Source: a virus (taxonomy: Duplodnaviria; Caudoviricetes). From it: a DNA stretch of 64,000 bases. Location: IMG/VR virus record IMGVR_UViG_3300015050_001523, positions 64,001 to 128,000 of that record; one strand, 5' to 3'. This document shows, in pieces, positions 35,086-35,148 of this stretch. Under the pieces are notes generated by a model that was given only the letters and a program-made list of their open reading frames with translations, was not told the DNA's origin and did not search any database. The position numbers were made by a program, and so were the translations under genes. The first letter of the stretch is position 1. Each line of letters begins with the position of its first letter.

Positions 35086-35148
35086 TTCTCGCAGTCAGTA
35101 ACGAGCTGACATCTGGCCGTCGCCGATTTTTCATTAAACTATGCGAGA
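35086..35148 (-). ncRNA. 63-nt mini tRNA-like RNA TL2 (no anticodon)
   Basis: TCTCGCA/TGCGAGA acceptor, TAGTTTAA consensus, 5-bp/7-nt T-like arm, GACG tetraloop in place of anticodon loop. Confidence 0.6.

Follow-up and report, generated by a model that had tools for sequence, protein, structure and literature searches.

Inside a tRNA array of a jumbo phage lies a 63-nt stretch that has the outline of a tRNA but lacks an anticodon loop. Is it an RNA that is produced and processed as a unit, or the remains of a tRNA gene that has lost its function? The element, here called TL2, occupies positions 35086..35148 on the minus strand of the window, by which we mean the whole 64,000-nucleotide stretch of DNA that was analysed (bases 64001-128000 of a 322,518-bp IMG/VR virus record with an estimated completeness of 93%). 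Nearly every gene of the window is carried by the minus strand, on which TL2 is likewise read. The source is an uncultured freshwater jumbo phage. Its genome has a G+C content of 33.6% and 37 tRNA genes according to ARAGORN run on the whole genome. Near-identical DNA is present in freshwater and subsurface metagenome runs, and no RNA run was found among the sequencing runs listed as holding the TL2 stretch.

We tentatively favor the reading that TL2 is a co-transcribed, non-decoding, tRNA-shaped unit. RNase P and 3' end enzymes of the host would cut it out, and it would be comparable to species 1 and 2 of phage T4. This reading is plausible, but we place it somewhat short of probable. We infer the transcription, the cleavage sites and the function of TL2 from its sequence, its helices and its placement.

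Fold of TL2 and its departures from tRNA

With each position numbered as 35149 minus the coordinate, TL2 begins with the acceptor 5' strand UCUCGCA (35142..35148; pair probabilities 0.74-1.0) and continues through UA at positions 8-9 into a D-like arm, GUUU-AAUGAA-AAAU (35126..35139), which has four weak pairs and a pair probability of 0.01. After a single C, the anticodon-arm position is taken by a GGC-GACG-GCC stub (35115..35124; pair probability 0.97), and after AGAU follows a T-like arm, GUCAG-CUCGUUA-CUGAC (35094..35110), that abuts the acceptor with 0 nt between them. The acceptor 3' strand UGCGAGA (35087..35093) ends at the discriminator A35086 (A73), and CCA is not encoded. Of the 19 pairs, 18 are Watson-Crick and 1 is G.U. 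In addition, U35149 at position -1 can pair with A35086 as an eighth acceptor pair, and the acceptor has 8 bp in the context fold.

The original prediction had described a perfect 7-bp acceptor, a shrunken D arm, the stub in the anticodon position, and, stacked on the acceptor, a 5-bp stem closing the 7-nt loop CUCGUUA, together with A73. All of these parts are present in the sequence, the 5-bp stem being perfectly paired, although the pair probability of the D arm is negligible. The series U8-A9-GUUU-AA, said to be common to TL2 and the neighboring element TL1, also holds, as the octamer UAGUUUAA is located at positions 8-15 of both. The 8-mer TAGTTTAA was found 11 times in the phage genome, and this 8-mer alone is therefore not rare. 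The stub and T-arm sequences of TL2 are each single-copy in the genome.

TL2 is not a tRNA. The tRNA model RF00005 did not match it at the 29-bit gathering threshold, nor at E <= 10 in a 901-nt search; no other Rfam family matched TL2 at E <= 10 in that search, and standard ARAGORN calls nothing at this site. TL2 shares with canonical tRNAs U8, a D stem of 4 bp, the discriminator base A73, and an acceptor of 7 bp that is stacked on a T stem of 5 bp whose loop has 7 nt. In contrast, a tRNA anticodon arm consists of a 5-bp stem and a 7-nt loop with U33, and TL2 has only the 3-bp GGC/GCC stem and the 4-nt GACG loop. The elbow of a tRNA is built from T54-Psi55-C56-R57-A58 and G18-G19. In the T loop of TL2, U55, C56 and G57 are kept but positions 54 and 58 are C and U, and the D loop AAUGAA has a single G where tRNAs have the G18-G19 doublet. 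Thus, TL2 is without the residues that build the tRNA elbow. In this respect it differs from the tRNA and tRNA-like 3' ends of the phage that were compared, since GTTC(G/A)A was present in 42 of 42.

Several other identities were considered and rejected. TL2 did not arise recently as a pseudogene copied from a tRNA, since none of the 37 tRNAs of the genome closely matches it. It is also not the scar of a "GC-hairpin swap" nuclease cassette, as it is neither a copy of an adjacent tRNA nor truncated, and no nuclease gene lies beside it. The ARAGORN tmRNA search found no tmRNA in the phage genome, and TL2 is only 63 nt long. A tmRNA gene was called by ARAGORN in a distant relative (L019:8750-9141).

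RNAfold gave a minimum free energy (MFE) of -20.1 kcal/mol for TL2 (z = -2.48), and 2 of 200 shuffled sequences were as stable. The MFE structure is the tRNA-like fold minus the D stem, which is predicted to be thermodynamically negligible. In the Boltzmann ensemble, to which the pair probabilities above belong, the T stem reaches only 0.27, because A14-A18 of the D loop are complementary to U45-U49 of the T loop. The resulting rival 5-bp helix has a probability of ~0.65 and appears in the centroid structure (-18.1 kcal/mol). As nested structures, the T stem and this helix are mutually exclusive. That the modeled ensemble prefers the competing helix over the T stem counts against our favored reading.

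The competing helix also supports an alternative, namely that TL2 is not tRNA-like in vivo. In one form of it, the acceptor stem, the A14-A18/U45-U49 helix and the GGC stub make up a rod-like fold, which with E1, the element on the 3' side of TL2, would serve only as a structured spacer or nuclease site. The cloverleaf-like fold, and not the rod, is nevertheless the MFE structure, and both pairings could coexist if the rival helix were a loop-loop contact. We hypothesize that such a contact, formed while the T stem is kept, could replace the canonical elbow. Complementarity of this kind between D loop and T loop arises by chance in ~4% of random or shuffled loop pairs. With a chance probability of ~0.04 it is suggestive only, and it was dropped as a separate finding. 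In the other form of the alternative, TL2 is a mitochondrial-style tRNA-Gly(GCC), as ARAGORN in its -mt mode proposes mtRNA-Gly(gcc) across the TL2 stretch. This candidate was rejected: it has a folding energy of only -7.6 kcal/mol, against -18.9 kcal/mol for the tRNA-like fold without the D stem, its pair probabilities are 0.0, and it would have G33. The -mt mode is also permissive, as it placed three "tRNAs" that overlap one another in a span of 297 nt. We consider this alternative, in either form, improbable.

The tRNA array and a possible route of processing

On the minus strand, the array runs from tRNA-Gly(UCC) (35296..35367) through TL1 (35151..35295), TL2 and E1 (35001..35085) to tRNA-Glu(UUC) (34925..34998), with gaps of ~1, 2, 0 and ~3 nt. 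Gaps of 0-3 nt compare with 4-12 nt between the other directly adjacent tRNAs of the genome. TL1 is a tRNA-like element of ~145 nt that has a 7-bp acceptor, a long inserted hairpin and a canonical GGUUCGAGUCC T arm, and E1 is an 85-nt element with a terminal stem of ~15 bp. TL2 exactly fills the space between them. When folded as a whole, the 443 nt of the array form five units that are each closed on their own (z = -6.3), and 0 of 100 shuffled sequences folded as well.

A paralogue of E1, named E2, lies on the minus strand at a distance of 16 kb (window 51282-51378). Their common core consists of CUUGUGAAA..GGUUUCA followed by GUUUUUCG.UUUUCAU, while their closing stems of 14-16 bp are perfectly paired and unrelated in sequence. 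Each of the two occupies the space from a tRNA-shaped unit to the next tRNA. E2 begins immediately 3' of the discriminator of a genuine tRNA-Ile, and E1 starts in the same way after that of TL2. This indicates that TL2 stands in the tRNA slot of a repeated layout of tRNA-shaped unit, E hairpin and tRNA.

A strict scan of both strands of the 322-kb genome addressed how often such a shape occurs. To count as a match, a stretch of 55-95 nt had to have TA at positions 8-9 and an acceptor of 7 Watson-Crick pairs, with a stem of 5 Watson-Crick pairs and a 7-nt loop stacked directly on it. Eight matches were obtained, four of which are known tRNAs, and Markov-simulated genomes average 1.2. The four non-tRNA matches are TL2, two AT-only stems, and an isolated 81-nt element at 215227 with a canonical T loop; only TL2 is located within a tRNA array. 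In the gaps inside the tRNA clusters of the phage, the non-decoding elements were TL1 and TL2 only, in addition to an uncalled tRNA-His. A chance match that lies flush inside a tRNA array is very unlikely, and the element is therefore real.

Other uncalled elements were observed in the course of this survey. The tRNA-His(GUG) (genome 183207-183279, minus strand) has the anticodon loop CUGUGAA, a perfect acceptor, discriminator C and the unusual T loop UGCAAGU, and fills the apparent absence of tRNA-His among the 37 tRNAs called by ARAGORN. The isolated 81-nt tRNA-like element (genome 215227-215307, plus strand) has a canonical T arm and a CCG-UAA-CGG mini hairpin. A 103-nt tRNA-like element (genome 135059-135161, minus strand) combines a canonical T arm and a normal D arm with a long extra region. 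On the plus strand of the window, 63305-63547 holds tandem elements of 116 and 121 nt with 7-bp acceptors, canonical GGUUCGAAUCC T arms and large structured inserts; ARAGORN did not call them, and they had no Rfam match at E <= 1.

The location of TL2 within a tRNA operon makes a transcribed and processed RNA likely. A strong promoter-like TTGACA-17-TATAGT (35731..35759, minus strand), by consensus match alone (11 of 12 positions, plus TG), lies 5' of tRNA-Ile, and the transcript that would carry TL2 probably starts there. The scan for terminator-like sites found none in 34500-36000. With a promoter-like site upstream and no terminator-like site in this interval, co-transcription of the array is the simplest assumption. 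The flanking ORFs of 91 aa and 75 aa had no homologues and no Pfam family, the latter with a weak PHROGs match only, of unknown function. A 48-aa ORF at 34988-35134 was rejected as coding, as it crosses TL2, E1 and the start of tRNA-Glu, and no ribosome-binding site was seen.

The acceptor/T stack, position -1 and the unpaired discriminator are what the CCA-adding enzyme, RNase P and the endonucleases of tRNA 3' ends recognize. In TL2, the prerequisites for cleavage by RNase P are present, namely coaxial stacking over 12 bp, U at -1 and A73. In the route that we propose, a single transcript would start at the promoter-like site (35759-35731) and comprise tRNA-Ile, the 75-aa ORF, tRNA-Gly, TL1, TL2, E1 and tRNA-Glu. 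The 12-bp stack of acceptor and T stem, together with U at -1, would make TL2 a substrate of host RNase P, and a cut 5' of U35148 would leave a 2-nt 3' trailer on TL1. A second cut, after A35086 at the foot of E1, would come from RNase E or from a 3' endonuclease of RNase Z/BN type and would free the 5' end of E1. The product would be a stable RNA of ~62 nt, unable to read codons. CCA is encoded by 0 of the 37 phage tRNAs, and no PF01743-type nucleotidyltransferase was found in the phage. All of them therefore depend on host 3' processing, and the 3' end of TL2 is thus ordinary for this genome. RNase P is known to cut non-tRNA substrates as well (PMC11143913).

TL2 keeps the part of a tRNA that processing enzymes read, but not the decoding part or the elbow, which suggests that its job is most likely the punctuation of the array. 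By analogy with T4 species 1 and 2, it may possibly have a further role as a small stable RNA. Judged by these sequence features, the processing machinery would most likely treat TL2 as a tRNA. Two points count against the favored reading. The T and D loops of TL2 are without the elbow nucleotides that the specificity domain of RNase P normally reads, and TL1 already has a canonical acceptor/T arm, so that TL2 is not obviously needed as punctuation.

Decay or retention of the element

The main rival to the processed-unit reading sees TL2 as a relic without function. In this view, an old tRNA gene has lost its anticodon arm and its loop consensus and is carried as a passenger of the operon, perhaps clipped by RNase P but not under selection. 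Consistent with this, the T loop and the D loop are non-canonical and the anticodon is absent. Decayed, anticodon-less remnants are also held by tRNA arrays of related phages. One of them, in a distant relative (L019:9980-10038), is a 59-nt tRNA-like remnant without an anticodon arm that has a mismatched acceptor and looks decayed. In L019:9980-10110 this remnant is directly followed by a second fragment with a D arm and a T arm.

That TL2 is an orphan without a homologue also fits a relic. A blastn search of 34850-35750 against 50,697 phage records gave matches to tRNA-Ile only. Pattern scans of IMG/VR found no TL2 homologue, and the 5 matches to the 17-mer T arm were unrelated leader hairpins and coding DNA. 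A single-sequence covariance model of TL2 returned ordinary tRNAs and weak matches only from ~105 loci (~1 Mb) of distant relatives, nothing from 23 whole related viral records, and only TL2 itself from its own phage genome. A structural scan for short acceptor/T elements in the distant-relative loci found no TL2-like class. No homologue of TL2, and hence no compensatory change in its stems, was found in these collections, which also counts against the processed-unit reading.

Even the closest relative (76% protein identity) has a different region between the gene of the neighboring 294-aa protein and the SprT-like gene, which is a further point in favor of a relic. Relatives of the 294-aa protein at 76% identity were found on two contigs (12.4 kb and 2 kb), and a metagenome scan with this protein gave relatives of <=68% identity over short segments and <=39% at full length. 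The 2-kb contig carries tRNA-Ile, tRNA-Arg and an HNH gene, and ends within an element that looks like the TL1 type, before the position of TL2; this element consists of a hairpin with a 6-nt loop and then a canonical T arm. In the 12.4-kb contig, ~470 nt separate the HNH gene from the next solid gene, a DUF6900 gene, an interval in which the same array would fit. In the closest relative whose sequence was readable, the HNH endonuclease gene (L030:1283-1744) directly follows tRNA-Ile and tRNA-Arg, and the TL1-type-looking element lies at L030:1890-2018. The placement of these two indicates that the tRNA region has been rearranged between close relatives.

In contrast, the helices of TL2 speak against free decay. 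All 19 of 19 pairs are intact, while 2-3 of ~9 near-invariant loop positions are changed, T54, A58 and G18-G19 being lost; under neutrality, several broken pairs would be expected. This expectation is a rough estimate and is indecisive at low divergence, where a relic is still allowed. The exact fit of TL2 between its neighbors also argues against a relic, as does the sole variant that was seen. In low-depth contigs of four studies, those parts of the array that are covered are almost unchanged. The only listed difference is a G>A change on the plus strand at 35143, that is, C6>U of TL2 on the minus strand, in two runs of two studies (X2, X4). It turns the C6-G57 pair into a G.U wobble and thus keeps the pairing. 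This change fits a structural constraint, but as one transition it proves little, and conservation of TL2 was seen only among near-identical strains. The intact helices beside diverged loop positions and the pair-keeping variant would favor selection on TL2. We regard a relic as unlikely, yet as the alternative that deserves the most attention.

The original prediction of a tRNA mimic without an anticodon that is selected for its shape is thus upheld in one part and weakened in another. The element is tRNA-shaped and has no anticodon loop. In contrast, no homologue was found in any collection searched, the elbow nucleotides are absent, and the rod-like fold competes with the tRNA-like one.

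Comparison with known tRNA-like RNAs

A further explanation assigns TL2 the role of a decoy or sponge: once CCA-tailed, this acceptor-end look-alike would absorb enzymes whose targets are tRNA 3' ends or acceptor stems, regardless of the anticodon. Such enzymes could be host toxins with CCA-end-modifying activity, or the RNA repair and quality-control enzymes that the phage itself encodes. Defence toxins that target tRNA acceptor ends exist, and the acceptor/T half is the only well-kept part of TL2. The phage also invests heavily in tRNA biology, with its 37 tRNAs, a Ro60/TROVE gene and a YrlA-like RNA. In contrast, a decoy has no direct support of any kind; TL2 is single-copy with no sign of high expression, and it has no partner gene beside it; the small ORFs on either side are without family or homologues. 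We consider a decoy improbable. A narrower version, to which we assign a very low probability, is a purpose-built, CCA-tailed mimic of the acceptor arm, with the A14-A18/U45-U49 contact as its elbow, that would divert 3' end enzymes such as defence toxins or serve as a non-ribosomal carrier of amino acids.

The Ro60 system of the phage lies ~83 kb from TL2. The TROVE/Ro60-like protein (533 aa) is encoded on the minus strand at L107:826-2427 (genome 180146-181747), and its PF05731 match of 26.8 bits is above the cut-off. A YrlA-like RNA (L107:2764-2869, minus strand; genome 182084-182189) is located directly beside the TROVE gene, between it and tRNA-Leu; its match to RF02553 (35.7 bits, E 2e-5) does not reach the gathering score of 69. 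The two resemble a phage Ro60/Y RNA pair within the main tRNA cluster. YrlA (RF02553) is a non-decoding Y RNA that mimics tRNA, is bound by Ro60, and occurs in bacteria and phages (PMC4201824). RF02553 had no match in 34850-35750 at E <= 10, and TL2 was ruled out as the Y RNA partner of the phage Ro60, as the YrlA-like RNA is the one beside the TROVE gene. The fold topology of YrlA, as published, is also the opposite of that of TL2, in which the acceptor end is open and the anticodon side is sealed. In armless mitochondrial tRNAs, the D or T arm is dropped and the anticodon arm retained, the reverse of TL2.

Two eukaryotic systems resemble the proposed behavior of TL2. The mascRNA and MEN-beta RNAs are tRNA-like cloverleafs of ~60 nt with a reduced anticodon arm that are cut by RNase P and RNase Z, CCA-tailed and non-decoding. 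In contrast to TL2, a unit of a phage array without an RF01684 match, mascRNA (RF01684) derives from the 3' ends of eukaryotic nuclear lncRNAs. The sole match of RF01684 (mascRNA-menRNA) in the region was on tRNA-Glu (20.1 bits, E 0.28). The t-elements of plant mitochondria are non-decoding acceptor/T-arm modules whose RNase P/Z signals set the ends of neighboring transcripts (PMC1920247). They lie in the flanks of organelle mRNAs and have neither a sequence relation to TL2 nor a common model with it. By analogy, TL2 would function like t-elements or mascRNA, while it belongs to neither family.

Non-tRNA small stable RNAs have been known in phage tRNA clusters since T4, and their function is still a puzzle after fifty years. 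With an acceptor/T stack and two small hairpins, TL2 is near the minimum that tRNA-processing enzymes should need. Should its processing and conservation be confirmed, TL2 would offer a compact model in which to study what such RNAs do, whether as punctuation, decoy or carrier, and how little of a tRNA is required by RNase P, RNase Z and the CCA-adding enzyme in vivo. As a single metagenomic orphan, TL2 has its present value as a well-defined candidate and not as a result.

The nearest precedent for TL2 is the species 1 and 2 pair of T4. These non-decoding RNAs, encoded by rnaC (species 1, 139 nt) and rnaD (species 2, 119 nt), are located directly after tRNA-Arg, which resembles the placement of TL2 in its array. 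In T4, tRNA-Arg, rnaD and rnaC follow one another in this order on one strand and are 1-6 nt apart, compared with 0-3 nt in the array described here. In work of the 1970s-80s, T4 species 1 and 2 were reported to arise from a dimeric precursor through RNase P cleavage. The rnaC RNA has a canonical T arm and ~140 nt, as does TL1, whereas the rnaD RNA differs from TL2 in having no tRNA-like fold. TL2 is half the size of species 1 and 2, its T loop is non-canonical, and its covariance model had no match at E <= 10 in the T4 tRNA region (L029). A catalogue of "tRNA-like molecules" of T-even phages is cited as reference 48 in PMC11143913. TL2 belongs among these non-decoding tRNA-like RNAs of phage tRNA arrays, which are an already known kind.
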